DNA of 64,000 nt from Candidatus Omnitrophota bacterium (GCA_043812955.1 JBDRLN010000040.1:685-64684), one strand, 5' to 3'; shown: positions 6,027 through 49,949, counted from the first letter of the stretch. Notes: generated from the letters alone by a model not told the origin. Numbers and translations are program-made.

Positions 6027-6753
6027 GGTTTTTTGTTTAAGCAAGGATATTTCGGGGAACAGAATTACGCTTACTGATAAGGATCAGATCCATCATTTAA
6101 GAGATGTTCTAAGGCTAAAAAAAGATGAGAAAATTGTTGCCTGCGATGAAAAAGGAGATGAATATATTACTCTGATCGATAGTATTAAACCGGGGGATAT
6201 GGTCTTAAGGATTAAAGAGAGAAAAGTATTGGTTATGGATAATAAGCCGAAGATCACTATTGCCTGCGCTATTCCTAAGAAATCCAATATGGATGATATT
6301 ATTGACAAATTGACTCAAGTGGGAGTGGATAGGATAATTCCTTTACAGACCGAAAGAGTTATTGTCAGGATCGGGCAGGATAAAAAGATATTCCGCCAGG
6401 AGCGCTGGAATAAGATTGCGCTTAATGCCAGCCGGCAAAGCCTGAGAAAGTTCCTGCCGGTAGTGGATCCGATTAAGGATATAAAAAAGGTTTTAACTGA
6501 TTTGGATGAGTTTGATTTAAGATTAATACCCACGCTTGAAGGCAAAAGAATTACCATAAAAGAAACCTTAAAAAATCCAAACTTGAAGAATATTATTGTA
6601 TTTATCGGTCCGGAGGGAGATTTCACGCTTGAGGAAATAGCCTGGGCCAAGAAATCAGGCTGTATCCCGGTTACCTTGGGAGATTTGGTTTTGAGGGTTG
6701 AGACCGCGGCTGTTGCGGTTGCCGGTTTCCTGAGGTTTTATGAAAACCGCTAA
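6019..6753 (+). CDS. rsmE: 16S rRNA (uracil1498-N3)-methyltransferase RsmE
   Basis: PUA-like N-terminus and a C-terminal SPOUT fold with IGPEGDFT...LG motifs. Confidence 0.85.
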   Translation: MVRVFCLSKDISGNRITLTDKDQIHHLRDVLRLKKDEKIVACDEKGDEYITLIDSIKPGDMVLRIKERKVLVMDNKPKITIACAIPKKSNMDDIIDKLTQVGVDRIIPLQTERVIVRIGQDKKIFRQERWNKIALNASRQSLRKFLPVVDPIKDIKKVLTDLDEFDLRLIPTLEGKRITIKETLKNPNLKNIIVFIGPEGDFTLEEIAWAKKSGCIPVTLGDLVLRVETAAVAVAGFLRFYENR

Positions 6754-8101
6754 CCCTTCGACTGGGCTTAAGGGTAATGGAGAGCGTAGTCGAAGAGTTA
6801 GGCTAATCACCCTGGGATGTAAAGTAAATCAATATGAGACCCAGGTAATCCGGGAAAATCTTCTTAAGGCCGGATTCAAAGAATCAGAAAAAAACCTTCC
6901 CGCTGATATCTACGTTATTAATACCTGTACAGTTACTCATAAGGCTGATCAGGAATCGCTTTATTATATTAATCGATCAAGGCGTCTTAACCCCAAAGCG
7001 AAAATTATTGTAACCGGATGCCTGGCTGAATTGGATAAACGGATTATTTCCCGCCAAAAAGGAATAAGCCTCATTGTTAAGAATAAAGATAAATATAGAA
7101 TAGCTAAGTTGCTAAAAGGTTCAGGCTCTAACAATGGCTCAAATATAACCGGTTTTCATAAACATACCCGGGCATTTCTTAAGATCCAGGATGGCTGTGA
7201 TAATTTTTGTACTTATTGCAAGGTTCCGCTGGTCCGGGGCGCTTCCCGCAGCCGGCCATTAAGCGAAATACTGGAAGAAGCCCAGGCTTTAGTGAAAAAT
7301 GGTTTTAAAGAAATAGTCTTGACCGGAATATGCCTAGGGTCGTATGGAAAAGATGTGGGTAGAGGTAAAGGTAGAGGTAAAGGTAGAGGTAAAGGCATAG
7401 ATTTAGTTGGGTTAATTAAAGAGCTGGAAAAAATAAAGGGGTTAATCCGGATTCGCTTGAGTTCTATTGAGGCCAAAGATGTAACGGATGAGCTTATTGG
7501 CAGGATAGCTAAATCTAAAAAATTATGCCGGCACCTGCATATACCTATTCAAAGCGGAGATAACCAGATCTTAAAGGCGATGAACCGTAAATATTCCCGT
7601 CAGGATTACCTGGGCCTGGTCAGAAAGATTAAAAATAATATTGCGGATATTGCTATTACTACCGATTGTTTAGTCGGTTTTCCCGGGGAAAGAGAAGATA
7701 ATTTTCAGAATACCGTGGATTTAGTTAAAGAGATAGTTCCTCTAAAAGTGCATATATTTCCTTATAGTGAAAGAAAAGCCACTTCGGCCTATAATTTAAA
7801 AGATAAGATCCCATCCAATATTGTCAGGGACAGGATGATTTACCTTAAAATAATTGCTAATAAATGCGCTTTAGAGTTCCGGAAGAAATTTCTCGATAAG
7901 AGGATGGATGTTTTAATTGAAGGGATGGTCAAGGGTAGCCAAGGTCTTTGGCAGGGCCATACTGATAATTACCTTAAAGTCATGGTAACATCTGATAAGG
8001 ATATCCGCAATCGCATCCTATTGGTTAAGTTAAAAGATATAAAAAGGGACAGCGACTATTTTCTTGCGTCAAAAAGGAAACGGGGTCAGAATTATTTTTA
8101 G
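6740..8101 (+). CDS. mtaB: MiaB-family methylthiotransferase (MtaB-like), carrying an internal (GRGK)3 insertion
   Basis: N-terminal MTTase domain (ITLGCKVNQYETQ), radical SAM CDNFCTYC and a TRAM-like C-terminus. The 3' end reads into the left REP half. Confidence 0.85.
   Translation: MKTANPSTGLKGNGERSRRVRLITLGCKVNQYETQVIRENLLKAGFKESEKNLPADIYVINTCTVTHKADQESLYYINRSRRLNPKAKIIVTGCLAELDKRIISRQKGISLIVKNKDKYRIAKLLKGSGSNNGSNITGFHKHTRAFLKIQDGCDNFCTYCKVPLVRGASRSRPLSEILEEAQALVKNGFKEIVLTGICLGSYGKDVGRGKGRGKGRGKGIDLVGLIKELEKIKGLIRIRLSSIEAKDVTDELIGRIAKSKKLCRHLHIPIQSGDNQILKAMNRKYSRQDYLGLVRKIKNNIADIAITTDCLVGFPGEREDNFQNTVDLVKEIVPLKVHIFPYSERKATSAYNLKDKIPSNIVRDRMIYLKIIANKCALEFRKKFLDKRMDVLIEGMVKGSQGLWQGHTDNYLKVMVTSDKDIRNRILLVKLKDIKRDSDYFLASKRKRGQNYF
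7358..7393 (+). repeat. In-frame minisatellite (GGTAGAGGTAAA)x3 inside mtaB
   Basis: Three exact 12-nt copies encoding GRGKGRGKGRGK. Related GGTARAGGTA repeats occur in intergenic DNA at 16231-16261 and 58713-58807. Confidence 0.85.
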
Positions 8102-8852
8102 TTAGATTTTCCCTTCTTATACGTCTATTAATATTAGAAGGGAGGATTTTATGGCTAGAAGACCGCGTTTATTTGTATCTGGTATACCCTACCACGTTGT
8201 TCAGCGAGGCAATAATAAAATTCCTATTTTTTTATCTGATCAGGATTACCGTTTCTTTTTAGATGTACTTCAAGAAGCCAAATCTAAACACCCATGTTTT
8301 ATTTATAGTTATTGTCTGATGCCTAACCATTTTCATTTACTTATTGAACCCAAGGAAGAAAATAATGTCAGTCTATTAATAAAGTTATTGGGAGCTAAAT
8401 ATGTGAGATATATCAATAAAAACTATGAACGTTCAGGCACTCTATGGGAAGGCCGCTTCAAATGCTCATTGATTGATAAGGAGTTATATTTTTTAACCGT
8501 TCTTCGTTATATTGAAATGAATCCGGTAAGGGCTGGCATAGTTAATTCTCCGGAGTTGTATCGGTGGTCGAGTTATCGGGTCAGGGCAATTGGTGAAAGA
8601 AGTTTTATTGTAGATATGGATCCTTGGTATGATAACCTAGGTTCTAATACAGAAGAACGTCAAAATAAATATCGGCAATTCTTCCAAAATTTAATACCTG
8701 ATCCCGCTTTGCACCTTCTAAGAGAAATGACAAATAAGAATGGTATCGTAGGCAGTATAAATTTTAAATCACGGATTGAACAATCTATTCATAAAGAAAT
8801 TGTTATAAGGTCAGCTGGTAGGCCAAAGAACGAAAAATAATTCTGACCCCAT
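8082..8852 (+). mobile_element. REP-associated tyrosine transposase (RAYT) flanked by the two halves of a REP palindrome
   Basis: GGGGTCAGAATTATTTTT at 8082-8099 and AAAAATAATTCTGACCCCA at 8834-8852 are reverse complements. The same palindrome occurs uninterrupted at 13897-13938 and 44418-44474. Confidence 0.8.
8151..8840 (+). CDS. rayT: IS200/IS605-like Y1 transposase of the RAYT type (Transposase_17)
   Basis: HUH motif NHFHLLIEP and catalytic Tyr region YVRYINKNYERSGTLWEGRF. 229 aa. The stop codon lies inside the right REP half. Confidence 0.85.
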   Translation: MARRPRLFVSGIPYHVVQRGNNKIPIFLSDQDYRFFLDVLQEAKSKHPCFIYSYCLMPNHFHLLIEPKEENNVSLLIKLLGAKYVRYINKNYERSGTLWEGRFKCSLIDKELYFLTVLRYIEMNPVRAGIVNSPELYRWSSYRVRAIGERSFIVDMDPWYDNLGSNTEERQNKYRQFFQNLIPDPALHLLREMTNKNGIVGSINFKSRIEQSIHKEIVIRSAGRPKNEK

Positions 8853-9143: not shown

Positions 9144-10106
9144 TTATTCGATGATCTCCTTGGCAATTGACAGGACTGGTCCGGGAATTTTTATTCCCGC
9201 TGCTATAGCTGATTTTTTATTAATGGTTATATCGTATGACTTTAATAGCTCAATCGGAATATCCGATGGGCTCTTGCCGTTTAAGATCTGGATTGCTTTT
9301 TTAGCGGCTAATTGTCCGAGCATATAGGAGCTAGAGGATACGCATAACAGGACTCCTTTTTTTGCCCGATCAGCCATGTGCGCGGCAGTCAAAAGCTTAT
9401 TATTATTTGCTACAGTTGTGATATCTGTAAGCGCCTTGGAAACTGTTGTGCCGCCGGTTACAAATATAGCATCAACTTTTCCGACCAGGGAATTAGTTAC
9501 GGAAACAGTATCTTCTACTTTAGCCAGATTTACCGGCACAACGGTGATTTTGCTGGTTTCCTGGATTTTCTTGAATGCCTCTAATTGTTGCACTGTATTA
9601 TCTTCTGTTTCAGTGTAGATAACGCCAATCCGGGCAACCTTAACTATTTTTCTCATAGCGTTGACAATTGCAGCCATGTCTACCATGGTAGAGGTGCCGG
9701 TGTTATTATTTCCTGACGATTCCCAACTCTTGGCAATCTTGGAGCTGATCGGGTCAAATACCAGGCTAAACACAATAGGTATATTTTTTTCTGCTTTAGC
9801 CGTAGCTATGGCTGCGACGGTTCCTACCGGAATAATAACATTTACCTTATTAGCCGAGAATTCGTTAACAATTGCCGTAATTTTTTCCTTATCATTCTCG
9901 CCATTTTTAAGGGTGAAGTCTACCTTGTCTTTTCCATATCCGGATTTTTCAAATTGATCAACACTGCCTTTTTGGGCTTCCAGGTAATGCGCGGCATCCG
10001 AAGTGATAACTATTCCGATCTTGATCTTTTCCTGGGCCAGCCCGATAGAACCAAGGCCAAGGCATATTGCTAAGACAATAACTACAACTATTCCTTGCTT
10101 AAACAT
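9144..10106 (-). CDS. Orphan ABC-type substrate-binding protein (ABC_sub_bind / COG2984-like) with a signal peptide
   Basis: Signal peptide MFKQGIVVVIVLAICLGLGSIGLA. The overall periplasmic-binding fold resembles PF04392 proteins. There is no adjacent permease or ATPase. Confidence 0.7.
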   Translation of the reverse strand: MFKQGIVVVIVLAICLGLGSIGLAQEKIKIGIVITSDAAHYLEAQKGSVDQFEKSGYGKDKVDFTLKNGENDKEKITAIVNEFSANKVNVIIPVGTVAAIATAKAEKNIPIVFSLVFDPISSKIAKSWESSGNNNTGTSTMVDMAAIVNAMRKIVKVARIGVIYTETEDNTVQQLEAFKKIQETSKITVVPVNLAKVEDTVSVTNSLVGKVDAIFVTGGTTVSKALTDITTVANNNKLLTAAHMADRAKKGVLLCVSSSSYMLGQLAAKKAIQILNGKSPSDIPIELLKSYDITINKKSAIAAGIKIPGPVLSIAKEIIE

Positions 10107-10201
10107 GTCTACCTCCCTTTTATAATATGGTTTCTTTCAACCTATTGTATTATAGTAAAAATAAAAAAATATGTCAAGGATTTTCGGGAATTTATATTTT
10201 A

Positions 10202-10231
10202 TTGACAATCCCGAGTTTTTAGGAGTAAAAT
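10202..10231 (+). promoter_or_regulatory. Sigma-70-like promoter: TTGACA, 18-nt spacer, TAAAAT
   Basis: Upstream of the first Cache-paralog gene. Confidence 0.5.
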
Positions 10232-10380
10232 AGATACCAATACGAAAAGGATTCTAGATTTAAAAAAAATAAAATCTACGATCAGGTTTTTTGTCAGAAG
10301 ATTTTTTTGTTTAAAACACTATTTTTACCGTTTGCCTGACGGTAAGTCAGGGCAGGTAAGATTAATAAAAAGGTTTAAAA

Positions 10381-10986
10381 ATGAAAAAGTTTATGCCGGT
10401 GAATTTCGCAGTTGCCGGTGTTTTAGTTCTAACCGCAGTTTTAGGCATAAGTTATGCCCAGAAAAATGAATTTATTCCTGCGGAGCAGGTTTTATTTGAG
10501 CAAATAGTAGTTACAGCACAGTCCTGGGGAAAAGACCCTAAAATAGTTTCTTTTGTCAAAGCTAAGAACGCCTCCGGAGAAACCTTAGACCAGGCAAAAG
10601 AGCAAGATAAGGCCTGGATCAGTACCCCCGGAATAGACGTATTTATGAAAAGTATATTGGAGAATGGTTGTTCCAAGTATCTGCGGGAGCTGAGAAAGAC
10701 AGCGCAGGTTATCGGAGAATTTTATGTGATGGATTTAAACGGGGCCTTGGTCGGCGCAACTAATAAAATCGCTGATTATTGGCAGGGAGATGAGGATATG
10801 CATATTAAGACTTGTCAGGTTGGAGGGGCAGGCGCGACCTTTATTGATATAATAAAATTCGATCAAAGTTCTCAAAAATTTCGCCGGCAGATAAGTGTCC
10901 CGGTTATAGACCTTGCCACCGGCAATGCTATCGGCGCGATAACCGTGGGTGTTGACCTGGATAAATTAACCAAACTTTCTAAATAA
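10381..10986 (+). CDS. Secreted single-Cache (PDC-fold) domain protein, paralog 1
   Basis: Signal peptide ending SYA-QK and a Cache-like C-terminus ...RQISVPVIDLATGNAIGAITVGVDLDKL. 201 aa. Confidence 0.6.
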   Translation: MKKFMPVNFAVAGVLVLTAVLGISYAQKNEFIPAEQVLFEQIVVTAQSWGKDPKIVSFVKAKNASGETLDQAKEQDKAWISTPGIDVFMKSILENGCSKYLRELRKTAQVIGEFYVMDLNGALVGATNKIADYWQGDEDMHIKTCQVGGAGATFIDIIKFDQSSQKFRRQISVPVIDLATGNAIGAITVGVDLDKLTKLSK

Positions 10987-11016
10987 ATGTTTGCATAAAA
11001 AAATGTGTGTTTCTTA

Positions 11017-11044
11017 TTGACAAATCAGCGAGCAGTAGTAAAAT
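11017..11044 (+). promoter_or_regulatory. Sigma-70-like promoter: TTGACA, 16-nt spacer, TAAAAT
   Basis: Upstream of the second Cache-paralog gene. Its architecture mirrors the promoter at 10202. Confidence 0.5.
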
Positions 11045-11094
11045 AATAAAACAGTAAGTGGAATGTAGGTCGCGAAAAAAAGGAGACGTAAGAA

Positions 11095-11703
11095 ATGAAT
11101 AAATATAGGGCATTGGGGTTAGTGTTAGGTTGTGTTTTGGTTTTAACCGTGGTGTTAGGCGTAGGTTACGCTCAGCAAAAAAAAGAACTTACTCCTGCAG
11201 AACAAGCATTATTTGATAAAACAGTGGCTATAGTGCAGAACTGGGGAAAAGATCCTAAAATAGTTGCTTTTGTCAAAGCTAAGAATGCCTCCGGAGAGAC
11301 CTTAGGTCAGGTAAAAGAGCAAGATAAAATATGGATCGCTACTCCTGGACTGAGCGCATTCATGAAAAGCATATTAGAAAATGATTGCTCCAAGTATCTA
11401 CTCGAACTAAGAAAGTTGACTCCGGCGGTTGGAGAATTTTTTCTTATGGATTTAAACGGGGCCTTGGTCGGCGAAACTAATAAAACCTCTGATTATTGGC
11501 AGGGCGATGAAGATAAGCATATTAAGACCTGCCAGATTGGCGGGCAAGGTGCAACTTTTATTGATAAAATCAAATATGATGAAAGCTCTCTAAAATTTAG
11601 CCGGCAGGTAAGCGTTCCGGTTATAGACCCTGATACCGGCAACGCTATCGGCGCGATAACCGTGGGTGTTGACCTGGATAAATTAATCAAACTTTCTAAA
11701 TAA
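11095..11703 (+). CDS. Secreted single-Cache (PDC-fold) domain protein, paralog 2 (tandem duplicate)
   Basis: About 65% aa identity to the 10381 product. Signal peptide ending GYA-QQ. 202 aa. Confidence 0.6.
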   Translation: MNKYRALGLVLGCVLVLTVVLGVGYAQQKKELTPAEQALFDKTVAIVQNWGKDPKIVAFVKAKNASGETLGQVKEQDKIWIATPGLSAFMKSILENDCSKYLLELRKLTPAVGEFFLMDLNGALVGETNKTSDYWQGDEDKHIKTCQIGGQGATFIDKIKYDESSLKFSRQVSVPVIDPDTGNAIGAITVGVDLDKLIKLSK

Positions 11704-11726
11704 GGGTTTAATCAATAGACATTAAG

Positions 11727-13784
11727 TTGAGGAGGATGGCAATGGCAGGAGAAACAGCCAAAGTTAAGATGGCAGAGAGTTTGCGTTTTAGGTTGATACT
11801 TTATTTTATTTTAATTACTTTTATCCCTTTAGTTGTTTTGAGCGTCATTGCCTACAATATTACCAAGTCTAGGCTGCAAACTCAGATTGCTGGTTCTCTG
11901 GAAGTTGTGGCTAAGGAAACATTAGACAAGGTGGACCGTTTTGTCTATCAGCAGATATCCGATGTTAAATCTTGGAGTAAAAATCCGATTTTAAAAGGGG
12001 CTCTTTTTTTCGGCACCGCGGATATGGTAGATACATTGTTCAATAATACCCTTGATTCTTTTAGGGAATATGATTCGCTGGCCCTATTTGACCGTAACGG
12101 AGATGAGGTTATATCTAAGGGCGAGAGTGTGTTATATGAAAAAGGCCAGAATCAATCTCGGGCAGACTGGTTTGAGGGCGCTACAAGGGCTAATTTTTAT
12201 ATTACCGAGGTGACTAAAAATGGAAATAAAATTCATGTAGGGATATCTTCTGCAGTTGTGGATAGCGAGACTGGGGAGACCAGCGGAGTGCTGTTTGCAG
12301 AGTTTAATTTTTTGACTATCAATGAAATCATTGCTCCGGTTCAGGTAACGGCAAATATTAAAGACCAGGGTATCAGCATCATTAATAATGAAGGGCTGAT
12401 TATATTTGATTTGGATAAAGGTGCCATATTTAACAAGAATTTGATTAAGGAGGATTATATAAGTGCCAAGCAAGTCCTCTCAACCAAGGGTAGCGGCTAT
12501 GTAGTTGATCTTGATACGGGCCGGCTTACCGGGTATGCTTACAGCAAGGGTTATAAGGATTTCAAAGGTGGGATGTGGAGCCTTTTATTGGGGGTTCAAA
12601 ATAAGACTATCCTGGCCCCGGTATTGCGCTTGCGCCAGTTATTTGTGACGATTATTCTTATAACGCTGGTTATTGTTACTATTATCTCTATATTTATCAG
12701 CCGCAGGATTACTAATCCGATTAGTATTGTTACGAACGCTATTCTGGATATTGCGGAGAGGGAGGCGGATTTAACCCATAAAATTGATTATACTTCTAAA
12801 GATGAAATAGGGATGTTGGTAATGGCCTTTAATAAAATCATAGATTCAATTTATATTTTGATTAAGCAGGTTAAAAATACTGCCAACACGGTAGTTGCTT
12901 CTACTCAAACTATGTCTGCAACCACCCAGGAGATGAATGCCTCTACCCAGGAAGTATCATCGGCGATTTTACAGGTAAGTAAGGGCGCTACTTCCCAGGC
13001 AGATCATTTGTCCAGAACTTTTGATATTATAGAAAAGTCAGCGGCAAGCCTGCGCCAGGTAGTGGATAATGCCCAATTAGCTAACCAGACCTCAGATAAG
13101 ACCAGCTTGGGAGCTGAAGAGGCCTATGTTGCTGCTCAAGAAGCAGTGGAGAAGATTGAGACCTTGAATAGTTCGGTTAAGGTAGCTGCCGATGTTATCC
13201 AGGAATTAGGTGAAACATCTAAACAAATAGGCGTGATTACCGATACAATTACTTCTATTGCTGACCAGATTAATCTGTTGGCTTTAAATGCCGCTATTGA
13301 GGCTGCTCGGGCTGGCGAGGCTGGCCGGGGTTTTGCTGTTGTTGCCGAAGAGGTGCGTAAGTTAGCTGAGGGGTCTGCTGAAGCAGTGCGTAAAATCAGC
13401 GGGTATATCCGCTCGATCCAGAACGGAACCAATAAGGCAGTCAGCGCTATATTGTCAAGCTCGGAGGCAGTTAAGGAAGGCAAGGCCCGGGTAGTTAAGA
13501 TCGCCCTGACCCTGCGCGATATCAATACATCTATTAAAGAGGGCGCTGGTTTAATCAGCCAGATCGCGGCCTCCGGAACTGACCGTGTATTAGAGACCGA
13601 GAAGATAGTTAAGGCAATTAATGAGGTAGCTGATATTGCCAAACAGTCTGCCGCAACTGCCGAACAGGTATCTTCGACCAGCGAAGAGCAAACCGCGTCT
13701 ATGCAGGAAGTGTCTGCCTCTTCTCAGGAGCTTGCCCGTTTGGCAATGGATTTAAGGGAGGTAGTTAATAGGTTTAAGATTTAA
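11727..13784 (+). CDS. Methyl-accepting chemotaxis protein with a periplasmic double Cache-like sensor, HAMP and MCP signalling domain
   Basis: TM1, a roughly 250-aa periplasmic region, TM2, then HAMP. The highly conserved MCP signalling hairpin [32 protein letters not shown] is present. Confidence 0.9.
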
Positions 13785-48245: not shown

Positions 48246-49181
48246 ATGAAAATAGGCATAGTCGGGCCCGGGGCAATGGGATGTTTATTCGCCGCCTATT
48301 TATCCAAGGCTGGCGCGGATGCGGATATCTGCTTAATAGATAACGATAAGGAAAGGGCTGCGAAAATCAGCCAGCAGGGTATATTAGTTGAAGGTATCTC
48401 CGGAAATTGGCAGGCTAATGTCAAGGTTACTGCTGATATACAGCAATTGGGTTTTTTAGATTTGATAATCTTTTGCGTAAAATCATATGATACTAAAATA
48501 GTCGCAGCCCATATCAAGCCTTTGGTAGGCGTTAATACCCTGGTGCTTACCCTGCAGAATGGAATCGGAAATATAGAAATTATCAGCGAGATTATCGGCC
48601 AGGATAAAGTGATCGCGGGTGTTACTAATCTCGGCTCAACCTTAATTAGCGATGGCCATATAAGGCATGCGGGCCTGGGAGAGACTTTGATCGGCAGGCT
48701 GGATGGAAAGCTGCCTGCCCAGATGCGCTCTTTAAGGGAGATTTTTAACCGGGTGGGTTTGGATGCCCGGATATCCCGGGATATAAAAAGCTGGTTATGG
48801 TCAAAGCTAGTGATTAATGCCGGCATAAATCCTCTTAGCGCCATAACTCGGTTAAATAATGGGCATTTGGTGGAGATAGAGACTGTGCGCAAGATAATGC
48901 GCGAGGCAGTTACAGAGGCCCTAAAAGTAATCAAGCGAAAAAGGATTAAGCTTATTTTTGATGATCCCTTAGCTAAGGTAGAAGCAGTATGCGAGGCAAC
49001 GGCAAATAATGTATCCTCGATGCTTCAGGATGTCTTAAGGAGCAAGCGCACCGAGATAGATTTTATTAACGGGGTAATTGTGCGCTTGGGCCAAGAGTTA
49101 GGGGTTTTAGTTCCGGTTAATTCACTTTTGGTTGACTTGGTTAAAACCATTGAAACAAGCTACCGCTTGCATTTAAAATGA
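48246..49181 (+). CDS. panE: 2-dehydropantoate 2-reductase (ketopantoate reductase)
   Basis: MKIGIVGPGAMGCLFAAYL Rossmann N-terminus. ApbA C-terminal domain. RBS GGAGG upstream of ATG 48246. Confidence 0.8.
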   Translation: MKIGIVGPGAMGCLFAAYLSKAGADADICLIDNDKERAAKISQQGILVEGISGNWQANVKVTADIQQLGFLDLIIFCVKSYDTKIVAAHIKPLVGVNTLVLTLQNGIGNIEIISEIIGQDKVIAGVTNLGSTLISDGHIRHAGLGETLIGRLDGKLPAQMRSLREIFNRVGLDARISRDIKSWLWSKLVINAGINPLSAITRLNNGHLVEIETVRKIMREAVTEALKVIKRKRIKLIFDDPLAKVEAVCEATANNVSSMLQDVLRSKRTEIDFINGVIVRLGQELGVLVPVNSLLVDLVKTIETSYRLHLK

Positions 49182-49561
49182 ACTTATTGCCCGGGAAAAA
49201 TATTTTAGTTATTGACGATAATATAAATAACAGCGATGTGCTAAAATTGTGTTTAGAAGATGCGGGCTATAGAGTATTTATCGTGGCCAGCGCACTCCAT
49301 GGCCTGGAAAAAATTAAGACTGAGAAAATAGATTTAATTATTTCAGATTTAGCCTTGCCGGGCCTGGATGGATTCGGGTTATTGACTATACTTAAGAGTG
49401 ATCCTCTGACTAAAGAAATACCGGTTTTAATCCTGACTAACAGGGATTCCAGGAGCGAGCTAGAGGAAGCGTTAAAATTAGGGGCAGTTGATTGTGTAGT
49501 AAGATATAGAAATCCCCCGGCAGCACTTTTGAAAATCGTAAACACGATCCTGAACATTTAA
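49178..49561 (+). CDS. Single-domain response regulator (CheY-like receiver)
   Basis: ILVIDDN...DLIISDLALPGLDG...K. Confidence 0.8.
   Translation: MNLLPGKNILVIDDNINNSDVLKLCLEDAGYRVFIVASALHGLEKIKTEKIDLIISDLALPGLDGFGLLTILKSDPLTKEIPVLILTNRDSRSELEEALKLGAVDCVVRYRNPPAALLKIVNTILNI
49512..49553 (+). repeat. 40-bp direct repeat, left copy (3' end of the first response-regulator gene)
   Basis: ATCCCCCGGCAGCACTTTTGAAAATCGTAAACACGATCCTGA, near-identical to 49997-50038. Confidence 0.8.
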
Positions 49562-49577
49562 AAAAAAGGAGGATACG

Positions 49578-49949
49578 ATGGCCAAAATAATTATGATAAT
49601 AGATGATAGTCCTCTCAGTCGGGAGATGAATCGGGTAAATTTGGTAAAGGCGGGTTATCAGGTAATTCTGGCCGAGGATGGCCTGCAGGCCATCGCTAAA
49701 TTAAAGGCAGATAATAATGTCGATCTAATTATTATGGACCTGGTGTTTTCGGGTTTGGATGGGATTAGCGTTCTTTCTGTTATTAGGGATGAGCTGGGGT
49801 TAAATAATATGCCAGTAATAATTTTTACCAACAGTGAAGATGAGGCGGATAAACAGGCGGCATTTAAATTAGGGGTGATAGAGTATATGGTTAAACATAA
49901 AGTATCCACAGATAGCCTGGTAAAATATATTAAGCAGTTGATACATTAG
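49578..49949 (+). CDS. Single-domain response regulator (CheY-like receiver), second copy
   Basis: IIMIIDDS...DLIIMDLVFSGLDG...K. About 30% identical to the first response regulator. Confidence 0.8.
   Translation: MAKIIMIIDDSPLSREMNRVNLVKAGYQVILAEDGLQAIAKLKADNNVDLIIMDLVFSGLDGISVLSVIRDELGLNNMPVIIFTNSEDEADKQAAFKLGVIEYMVKHKVSTDSLVKYIKQLIH

Follow-up and report, generated by a model that had tools for sequence, protein, structure and literature searches.

Binding-protein chemoreception is described for the pairs MBP-Tar, RBP/GBP-Trg, DppA-Tap and LsrB-Tsr of Escherichia coli and AibA/AibB-TlpB of Helicobacter pylori (PMC8050422, together with established knowledge), and HptA-HptS of Staphylococcus aureus provides a precedent for a solute-binding protein (SBP) that docks on a sensor with a double Cache (dCache) domain (PMC8050422). 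Here we analyze a gene cluster in a 64,000-nucleotide stretch of DNA from a Candidatus Omnitrophota metagenome-assembled genome (GCA_043812955.1, JBDRLN010000040.1:685-64684; "the window" throughout, with positions counted from its first letter), in which an SBP gene lies divergent to two tandem genes for paralogs with signal-peptide-like N-termini, A and B, that are followed by the gene for a methyl-accepting chemotaxis protein (MCP). The original prediction, made from the sequence without database searches, took these four genes to be a chemosensory module and proposed either indirect ligand sensing through periplasmic partners of the receptor or a recent duplication and fission of sensor modules.

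CetA and CetB form the bipartite energy-taxis receptor of Campylobacter jejuni, in which CetB is cytoplasmic and CetA has no sensor domain of its own. This pair is mentioned in PMC2886117, and PruR-DcpA of Agrobacterium (PMC11194511) and VpbA-CdgA of Vibrio cholerae (PMC12422006) are described as two-gene operons. According to a 2026 preprint, fusion to signaling modules is the rule for Cache domains, at more than 90%, and stand-alone ones are atypical (PMC12889525). In the literature that we searched, whose coverage is thin for subscription journals, we met with no account of an MCP that has a stand-alone PDC protein as its partner. We favor, with modest confidence, the reading that the paralogs are exported soluble ligand binders of the Cache type, accessory sensors that modulate the operon-encoded MCP from the periplasm.

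Results

All four genes of the predicted module were recovered as open reading frames (ORFs) at the coordinates first given, and the product of the paralog B gene is 100% identical to that of ABIH27_02700. Paralog A (10381..10986, plus strand, 201 amino acids [aa]) and paralog B (11095..11703, plus strand, 202 aa) are 71.3% identical over their full length and 75% over the mature 175 aa, higher than the 65% first given, and both carry the C-terminus ..SVPVID..TGNAIGAITVGVDLDKL. AlphaFold2, supplied with a 42-sequence alignment, returned a model of paralog B (pLDDT 89.2, pTM 0.80) in which a signal-peptide helix and five helices precede the strands and inserted helix of a PDC domain (helices 34-107; strands 112-118, 123-127, 160-162, 167-177 and 184-193). 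In a Foldseek comparison with the PDB, all the matches of this model were extracytoplasmic sensor domains of the PDC/Cache fold, at probability 1.0 (E down to 6.6e-8), with KinD, Tlp3, DctB, WalK, CitA, DcuS, Mlp24 and PctA among the matches; the TM-scores were modest, 0.4-0.5, because of the extra N-terminal helices in the paralogs. Model and structural matches together bear out the Cache/PDC fold that had been proposed from the C-termini, and on this predicted structure we assign both paralogs a single, stand-alone PDC/Cache fold. A profile search of PDB sequences with the paralog profile returned only matches to ACE2 (E>=0.09), which we attribute to chance; the comparison of folds was thus the one that proved informative.

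The N-termini of the paralogs, a basic n-region and a hydrophobic stretch of about 19 residues followed by GYA|Q or SYA|Q, resemble cleavable signal peptides, as the first reading of the sequence had it, and in most members of the wider family the hydrophobic segment leads into a cleavage motif of the A-x-A type. Two other assignments were considered and rejected. A lipoprotein reading fails since the cysteine of the B signal peptide sits in the middle of the h-region, with no proper lipobox, and A has no cysteine; kinship with sCache_heme/DUF3365 fails since the paralogs have no CXXCH motif and no match to the Pfam DUF3365 profile.

The paralogs belong to a large family that has no Pfam or NCBIfam model of its own. 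A first homolog search with a paralog yielded 759 clusters, nearly all of 180-205 aa and mostly of about 187 aa, and an exhaustive profile search of 1.84 billion representatives, with clusters at 50% identity, yielded 4,337 clusters at E<=1e-3 and 3,022 at E<=1e-10. Overwhelmingly, its members are stand-alone proteins, about 187 aa long. Relatives are encoded in at least 572 species-representative genomes, and the family ranges over Nitrospirota, Desulfobacterota, Alpha-, Beta- and Gammaproteobacteria, Myxococcota, Spirochaetota, Atribacterota, Acidobacteriota, Verrucomicrobiota, Cloacimonadota, Ignavibacteria-like bacteria, Krumholzibacteriota, SAR324 and Omnitrophota. Precomputed PF02743 or PF22673 matches exist on many homologs and are flagged as weak in several of the loci that we examined. 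Across 42 sequences at roughly 40-50% identity, 25 columns are invariant; these cluster in two places, the loop that follows strand 2 (K-T-S-D-Y-W-Q-G-D-E-D-K-F) and strands 4-5 (QVSVPV, IGAIT.G). The core motif KTSDYWQGDE is nearly invariant, and the invariant residues of the loop include K130, D133, Y134, Q136, G137, D138 and E139. Placed by predicted secondary structure, this loop would sit where PDC domains bind small ligands, and its polar and aromatic residues from K130 to E139 suggest small-ligand binding in the PDC pocket.

Fusion proteins place the same module in other sensors. Four BvgS-like hybrid kinases of 1,500-1,760 aa (P0263, P0270, P0282 and P0344) consist of an N-terminal PDC domain followed by three to five SBP_bac_3 (Venus-flytrap) domains, HisKA, HATPase and a receiver; P0362 is an NMT1_2 SBP with a C-terminal PDC domain; one protein has two PilJ domains and then a PDC domain; and several are tandem double PDCs of 400 aa. 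In P0258 (1367 aa), four PDC copies stand ahead of 7tm_3, a seven-transmembrane domain of the class-C-GPCR type, and this protein may be a eukaryote-like receptor in which Cache modules replace the Venus-flytrap domain. By Rosetta-stone logic, these fusions tie the PDC module to periplasmic sensing, and notably to modules of the SBP fold.

In the first four unrelated contexts that we inspected (Vibrio gazogenes, a gammaproteobacterium, a Thermodesulfobacteriota metagenome-assembled genome and a metagenome contig), an MCP gene lies directly downstream of the PDC gene. We then surveyed 80 species loci, 6 of which have contigs that end too early for the neighbor to be judged. At 55 of the 80, a same-strand MCP starts -52 to +136 nucleotides (nt) after the PDC stop codon, with a median gap of 46 nt. 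Three loci first counted as lacking an MCP carry genes for a four-helix bundle (4HB) and HAMP domain that are cut by the contig end, one further locus encodes a HAMP protein resembling a frameshifted MCP, and another has an MCP 506 nt downstream; once contig-cut partners are counted, about 60 of about 75 evaluable loci have an MCP partner. Other transducers also adjoin the PDC gene, namely a histidine kinase downstream in locus L051 and upstream in L055 and L064, and a 4HB-HAMP protein in L040. MCPs make up about 1% of genes or fewer, and at that frequency the adjacency of PDC and MCP genes cannot be chance. The pairing is kept across at least 12 phyla, far more strongly than the original prediction, which had proposed a co-occurrence check, could know. 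Within the Omnitrophota clade the gap between the two genes is 23-48 nt, and at a more distant Omnitrophota locus an MCP-CheW-PilZ set adjoins the PDC gene. At locus L025, a gene for an Nramp metal transporter lies directly upstream of the PDC gene. Given this conserved pairing, we put first the hypothesis of indirect sensing by way of a periplasmic partner, with gene context as the ground on which contact between the two proteins would be expected.

The partner MCPs (n=61) all have the signaling domain; 36 match 4HB_MCP_1, 31 TarH and 6 dCache_1. Classed by periplasmic length and profile, 43 of the 61 share one conserved four-helix-bundle sensor with the motifs LLEADRDLQQLLVAERSMIF and DTRxGRRLAxDLSL, 12, all from Alphaproteobacteria, carry another domain, about 140 aa long, and 6 are dCache-sized: those of the window, its relative L007, three Myxococcota and one spirochaete. 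Similarity between the sensor domain encoded in the window and its myxobacterial counterparts is detectable (E=5e-15 to 2.5e-10). The window thus carries the minority, dCache version of a widespread module.

The MCP gene of the window (11742..13784, plus strand) comprises a first transmembrane segment, a dCache_1-like domain, a second transmembrane segment, HAMP and the MCP signaling domain. Its ORF (11727-13784, 685 aa) opens at a TTG at 11727; the start is probably the ATG at 11742, which lies 6 nt after an AGGAGG (11730-11735), agrees with gene calls in related genomes and leaves a gap of 38 nt after the paralog B stop codon. Pfam recognizes MCPsignal (E=6.7e-37, 127 bits) and HAMP (E=9e-10, 39 bits), both above their cutoffs. 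Between the two transmembrane segments lie about 264 aa of periplasmic sequence, and a profile built from this region and six relatives (A5) matches the solved dCache_1 domains of Mlp37, PctB, PctA, Mlp24 and KinD at E=6e-11 to 2e-6. On this profile evidence we accept the assignment of the periplasmic domain as a double Cache, consistent with the Cache-like region noticed at first reading. A homolog search with the sensor region itself returned nothing at E<=1e-5, and a single-sequence AlphaFold2 model of the region (pLDDT 41.9) was not used.

Paralogs A and B diverge by 0.61 synonymous substitutions per site (dS) and 0.155 nonsynonymous ones (dN). The dN/dS ratio of 0.25 indicates that both copies are under purifying selection and maintained. 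The duplication is real and is common to the window and locus L006, which has the same set of SBP gene, two PDC genes and MCP gene; a dS of about 0.6 means that it is not very recent, and to that extent the "recent duplication" first proposed does not stand. Loci L007-L009 have an SBP gene, one PDC gene and an MCP gene, and their single PDC copy is closer to B. Paralog B, which adjoins the MCP gene, retains the family consensus and is the conservative copy. Paralog A keeps all the invariant residues of the family and is altered at near-invariant sites beside the core motif (T131I, S132A, K141M/I), positions at which its ortholog in L006 (P0005) also has derived residues; these changes in the derived copy are consistent with a shifted specificity. 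Tandem PDC copies also occur in unrelated lineages, with three in L074 and two each in L078 and L080. At L074:5-2492, the three tandem stand-alone PDC genes have no MCP gene within 5 kb downstream.

The second proposal, that the stand-alone Cache genes were recently split or duplicated from the sensor of the neighboring dCache MCP, draws on the adjacency of the genes and on the PDC fold that both modules have. An hhalign comparison of the paralog family profile with the MCP sensor region found no specific similarity (probability 0.2, E=0.27), on which ground we reject fission. The stand-alone form is moreover dominant and ancient, with its 4,337 clusters spread over many phyla, and most partner MCPs carry a 4HB sensor rather than a Cache domain. 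Already contradicted by these data, fission from the MCP has next to no probability in our estimate.

The SBP gene (9144..10106, minus strand) encodes 320 aa with a signal peptide and matches Pfam PF04392 ABC_sub_bind at E=4.5e-47 (161 bits against a cutoff of 25.9). An identification as the tryptophan SBP TrpX (NCBIfam equivalog NF041285) was rejected, its 168 bits against a cutoff of 390 marking a distant relative only. The gene stands alone on the minus strand, as the sole real gene of that strand in the window, and no permease or ATPase gene of an ATP-binding cassette (ABC) transporter lies near it there, so that the canonical operon with BPD_transp_2 and an ATPase is absent; no ORF in the 64 kb combines Walker A with LSGGQ, the ABC ATPase signature, by motif and seed-protein search. 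The description of an orphan SBP thus holds. Orthologs keep the same position in L006-L009. Outside close Omnitrophota relatives, a PF04392 gene lies near the PDC gene in 0 of the 80 loci, and the SBP is therefore not part of the general PDC-MCP module.

The nearest paralogs of the SBP (45-49% identity) are encoded in arrays of two PF04392 genes without an ABC permease or ATPase (L090, L092 and L093). The L093 array, which includes a Peripla_BP_6 gene, precedes a dCache MCP that is 33% identical to that of the window over its full length (E=4e-97); the L090 array, which has a PBP_like_2 gene, lies ahead of a gene for a HAMP-PAS-GAF histidine kinase; and the third lies among efflux and cation-transport genes. 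A canonical PF04392 gene from Marinospirillum (28% identity) is adjoined by its permease and ATPase genes. The three arrays suggest a clade of signaling-dedicated SBPs in the Omnitrophota lineage, and a signaling role is plausible by analogy with LuxP-LuxQ and HptA-HptS.

These arrays raise the possibility that the SBP is the true indirect-sensing partner of the dCache MCP and that the PDC proteins act independently of the receptor, buffering or scavenging a ligand and co-expressed for the same compound. Relatives of the SBP do lie beside a homologous dCache MCP with no PDC gene, in L093, and the usual partner of a PDC protein is a 4HB MCP rather than a dCache one. Nevertheless, the adjacency of PDC and MCP genes persists in the clade with its short gap, in Myxococcota, without an SBP, a PDC gene likewise goes with a dCache sensor similar to this one (E down to 5e-15), and the SBP gene of the window is on the opposite strand. 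We regard this arrangement as decidedly improbable and retain the reading in which the PDC proteins themselves act on the MCP.

Each of the genes has promoter-like sequences upstream. The site of paralog A (10202..10231, plus strand; TTGACA/18/TAAAAT) and the site of paralog B and the MCP (11017..11044, plus strand; TTGACA/16/TAAAAT) each match 11 of 12 positions, and the SBP gene has a 12/12 site (10149..10177, minus strand; TTGACA/17/TATAAT) back to back with that of paralog A. The region holds 16 such sites and shuffled sequence 13.1, a total not above chance, and hexamer sites by themselves prove nothing at such a count. Yet the near-identical boxes that had been noted before the two paralogs are present and conserved: they form conservation islands in the orthologous intergenic regions of related genomes. 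Upstream of paralog A, TTGACAA and TA(A/T)AAT are invariant or nearly so in an alignment of four genomes (A3); the boxes of the SBP promoter are kept in four related genomes; and in the spacer between A and B, the island conserved between the window and L006 is TTATTGACAAATCAGCG..AGTAAAATAA. The putative 5' leader of paralog A, about 150 nt long, contains a hairpin with a 6-bp stem (CCTGAC-GGTAA-GTCAGG; 10335..10351, plus strand) that is kept in L006, is not found in the single-copy genomes and has no Rfam match. An Rfam scan of the whole window returned two tRNAs only, with no riboswitch in this long leader.

Elsewhere in the window, non-antisense-shadow ORFs of at least 110 aa are all on the plus strand, the SBP gene excepted, and the GC skew is positive over the whole 64 kb. 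The only other signaling genes detected are two for receiver-domain proteins, tandem single-domain response regulators with CheY-like receivers (49178-49561 and 49578-49949, plus strand), which are flanked by a ketopantoate-reductase-like gene on one side and by ApbE and MgtE-like genes on the other. Between the SBP gene and a gene for a MiaB-like radical-SAM protein (6740-8101, plus strand) lies an IS200-like Y1 transposase gene (8151-8840, plus strand; PF01797, E=5e-17) that occupies the same place in L007 and is absent from L006. The MiaB-like protein carries a low-complexity insert, GRGKGRGKGRGKG, at about 7330-7400.

Discussion

Our results place the two putatively secreted paralogs of the window in a family of stand-alone PDC proteins whose genes are found next to MCP genes in a wide range of bacteria. 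The evidence for this pairing is strong and comparative, and from this gene context we infer the mechanism that follows. Each paralog would be exported and its signal peptide cleaved, after which a small ligand would bind in the PDC pocket, of which the near-invariant K-T-S-D-Y-W-Q-G-D-E loop would be the lining; a cation or an amine is our guess, given the acidic and aromatic side chains. The paralog would then contact the periplasmic domain of the MCP in a ligand-dependent manner and alter receptor output. Paralog B and the MCP, with their 38-nt gap and own promoter, would form one transcription unit, and paralog A, served by a promoter of its own, would be an additional copy that has diverged and whose specificity has probably changed. 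We take the orphan SBP, transcribed in the opposite direction, as a probable second input from the periplasm to this dCache receptor, specific to the clade, much as LuxP acts on LuxQ or HptA on HptS.

Several observations weigh against this reading. Neither paralog reaches a Pfam gathering threshold; the best match of paralog B is dCache_3 (E=0.08, 12.9 bits), there is none for A, and an NCBIfam scan gave no significant family for either. Similarly, dCache_1 on the MCP (E=3e-9, 37.2 bits) falls below the gathering cutoff of 45. The hidden Markov model searches suggested in the original prediction accordingly support ABC_sub_bind for the SBP and give a sub-cutoff dCache_1 match for the MCP, and for the paralogs no curated Cache model rises above threshold. 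No che genes were found in the window with seed proteins and motifs, and the downstream pathway of the MCP is not seen there. The link to the SBP is seen among close relatives only, where plain inheritance of gene order could account for it. A signaling neighbor is missing at about 10 of the 80 loci, and one highly conserved PDC protein is paired with at least three unrelated sensor folds, which is hard to reconcile with a single docking surface.

The loci that lack a signaling neighbor, together with a view limited to 64 kb of the genome, speak for the explanation that the four genes are unrelated neighbors, with the SBP serving an ABC importer encoded elsewhere and the PDC proteins having no part in signaling. 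The adjacency to MCP genes at 55-60 of about 75 evaluable loci in at least 12 phyla and the fusions of PDC domains to sensor kinases weigh against such an account, and we consider it very improbable.

The diversity of partner folds speaks for invariant residues that line a pocket for a ligand and not a surface for docking, and it leaves room for a mechanism in which contact is made elsewhere. The PDC proteins could be ligand-independent accessory regulators, inhibitors or stabilizers like YfiR-YfiN, YycH/YycI-WalK and CpxP-CpxA, that might bind the MCP constitutively until released or inactivated by a physical or redox cue, maybe anchored through an uncleaved signal sequence. The conserved operon pairing fits such regulators equally well, one of the Foldseek matches is a WalK-YycH model (9a5d), the h-region is rather long at about 19 residues, and three partner folds are easier to accommodate if contact runs through membrane-proximal or transmembrane regions. 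However, conservation peaks in the loop after strand 2, the predicted small-ligand site of PDC domains, cleavage motifs of the A-x-A type lie behind the hydrophobic segment in most members, and the best structural matches are small-molecule-binding sensors. We thus judge ligand-independent regulation unlikely and continue to prefer ligand-binding accessory sensors.

More broadly, we advance as a tentative possibility, short of an even chance, that the paralogs represent a widespread and unrecognized class of soluble, ligand-binding single-PDC co-receptors of the periplasm, dedicated to an operon-encoded MCP and occasionally to a histidine kinase, and that they constitute a route of sensing distinct from both direct and SBP-mediated binding; in this Omnitrophota lineage the PDC gene is duplicated and joined by a transporter-less SBP gene, and a single dCache receptor could thus be fed by up to three soluble periplasmic sensors. 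Most chemoreceptors have no known ligand, and screens test only the receptor's own sensor domain. If the proposal is true, thousands of MCPs, mostly with the conserved 4HB sensor, would receive their signal through a secreted Cache protein, such screens would miss the ligand, and receptor specificity would have to be sought in the Cache partner. The near-invariance of the predicted pocket loop over at least 12 phyla would imply one widely relevant ligand. Cultivable carriers, including Vibrio gazogenes, V. ruber, Thiobaca trueperi, Pyxidicoccus fallax and Myxococcus species, make the idea directly testable. The family also constitutes a second large group of stand-alone Cache proteins, an architecture recently called atypical (PMC12889525).

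The first such group, sCache_heme/DUF3365/Tll0287 (PMC12889525), likewise consists of Cache-fold modules that are often stand-alone and exported; its members have a CXXCH c-type heme motif and have been assigned redox roles, whereas the PDC family lacks CXXCH and is tied to MCP genes. PruR-DcpA and VpbA-CdgA resemble the arrangement proposed here in pairing a periplasmic ligand-binding protein that is not an SBP with a transmembrane signaling protein, whose periplasmic domain is bound in those systems, and differ from it in their SUOX/molybdopterin-like pterin-binding fold and in an output through a cyclic di-GMP enzyme instead of an MCP. In gene organization the closest system is CetA/CetB, where a PAS-superfold sensor and an MCP-type transducer are also separate proteins encoded side by side, although here the sensor-fold protein is predicted to be exported and the MCP retains a full periplasmic domain.

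As in LuxP-LuxQ of Vibrio and HptA-HptS, an orphan or dedicated SBP is encoded in the window beside a transmembrane sensor with a dCache-type domain; these pairs are a possible model for the SBP and MCP studied here, where, unlike in those systems, the output is an MCP rather than a kinase and two stand-alone PDC genes lie between the SBP and receptor genes. Binding-protein chemoreception shares with our proposal a soluble periplasmic protein that would present a signal to an MCP, and the usual partner of a PDC protein has a Tar-like four-helix bundle. The known chemoreceptor binding proteins have the bilobed SBP fold, are shared with transporters and are encoded with these rather than with the MCP, whereas the PDC proteins are single PDC/Cache domains of about 18 kDa with no transporter nearby and belong to the same operon as the MCP. 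By this analogy, the paralogs may work like binding-protein chemoreceptor systems but are not members of them. Indirect chemoreception is a known kind of sensing, and the comparison suggests that the PDC family is a so far undescribed kind of chemoreceptor helper protein within it.

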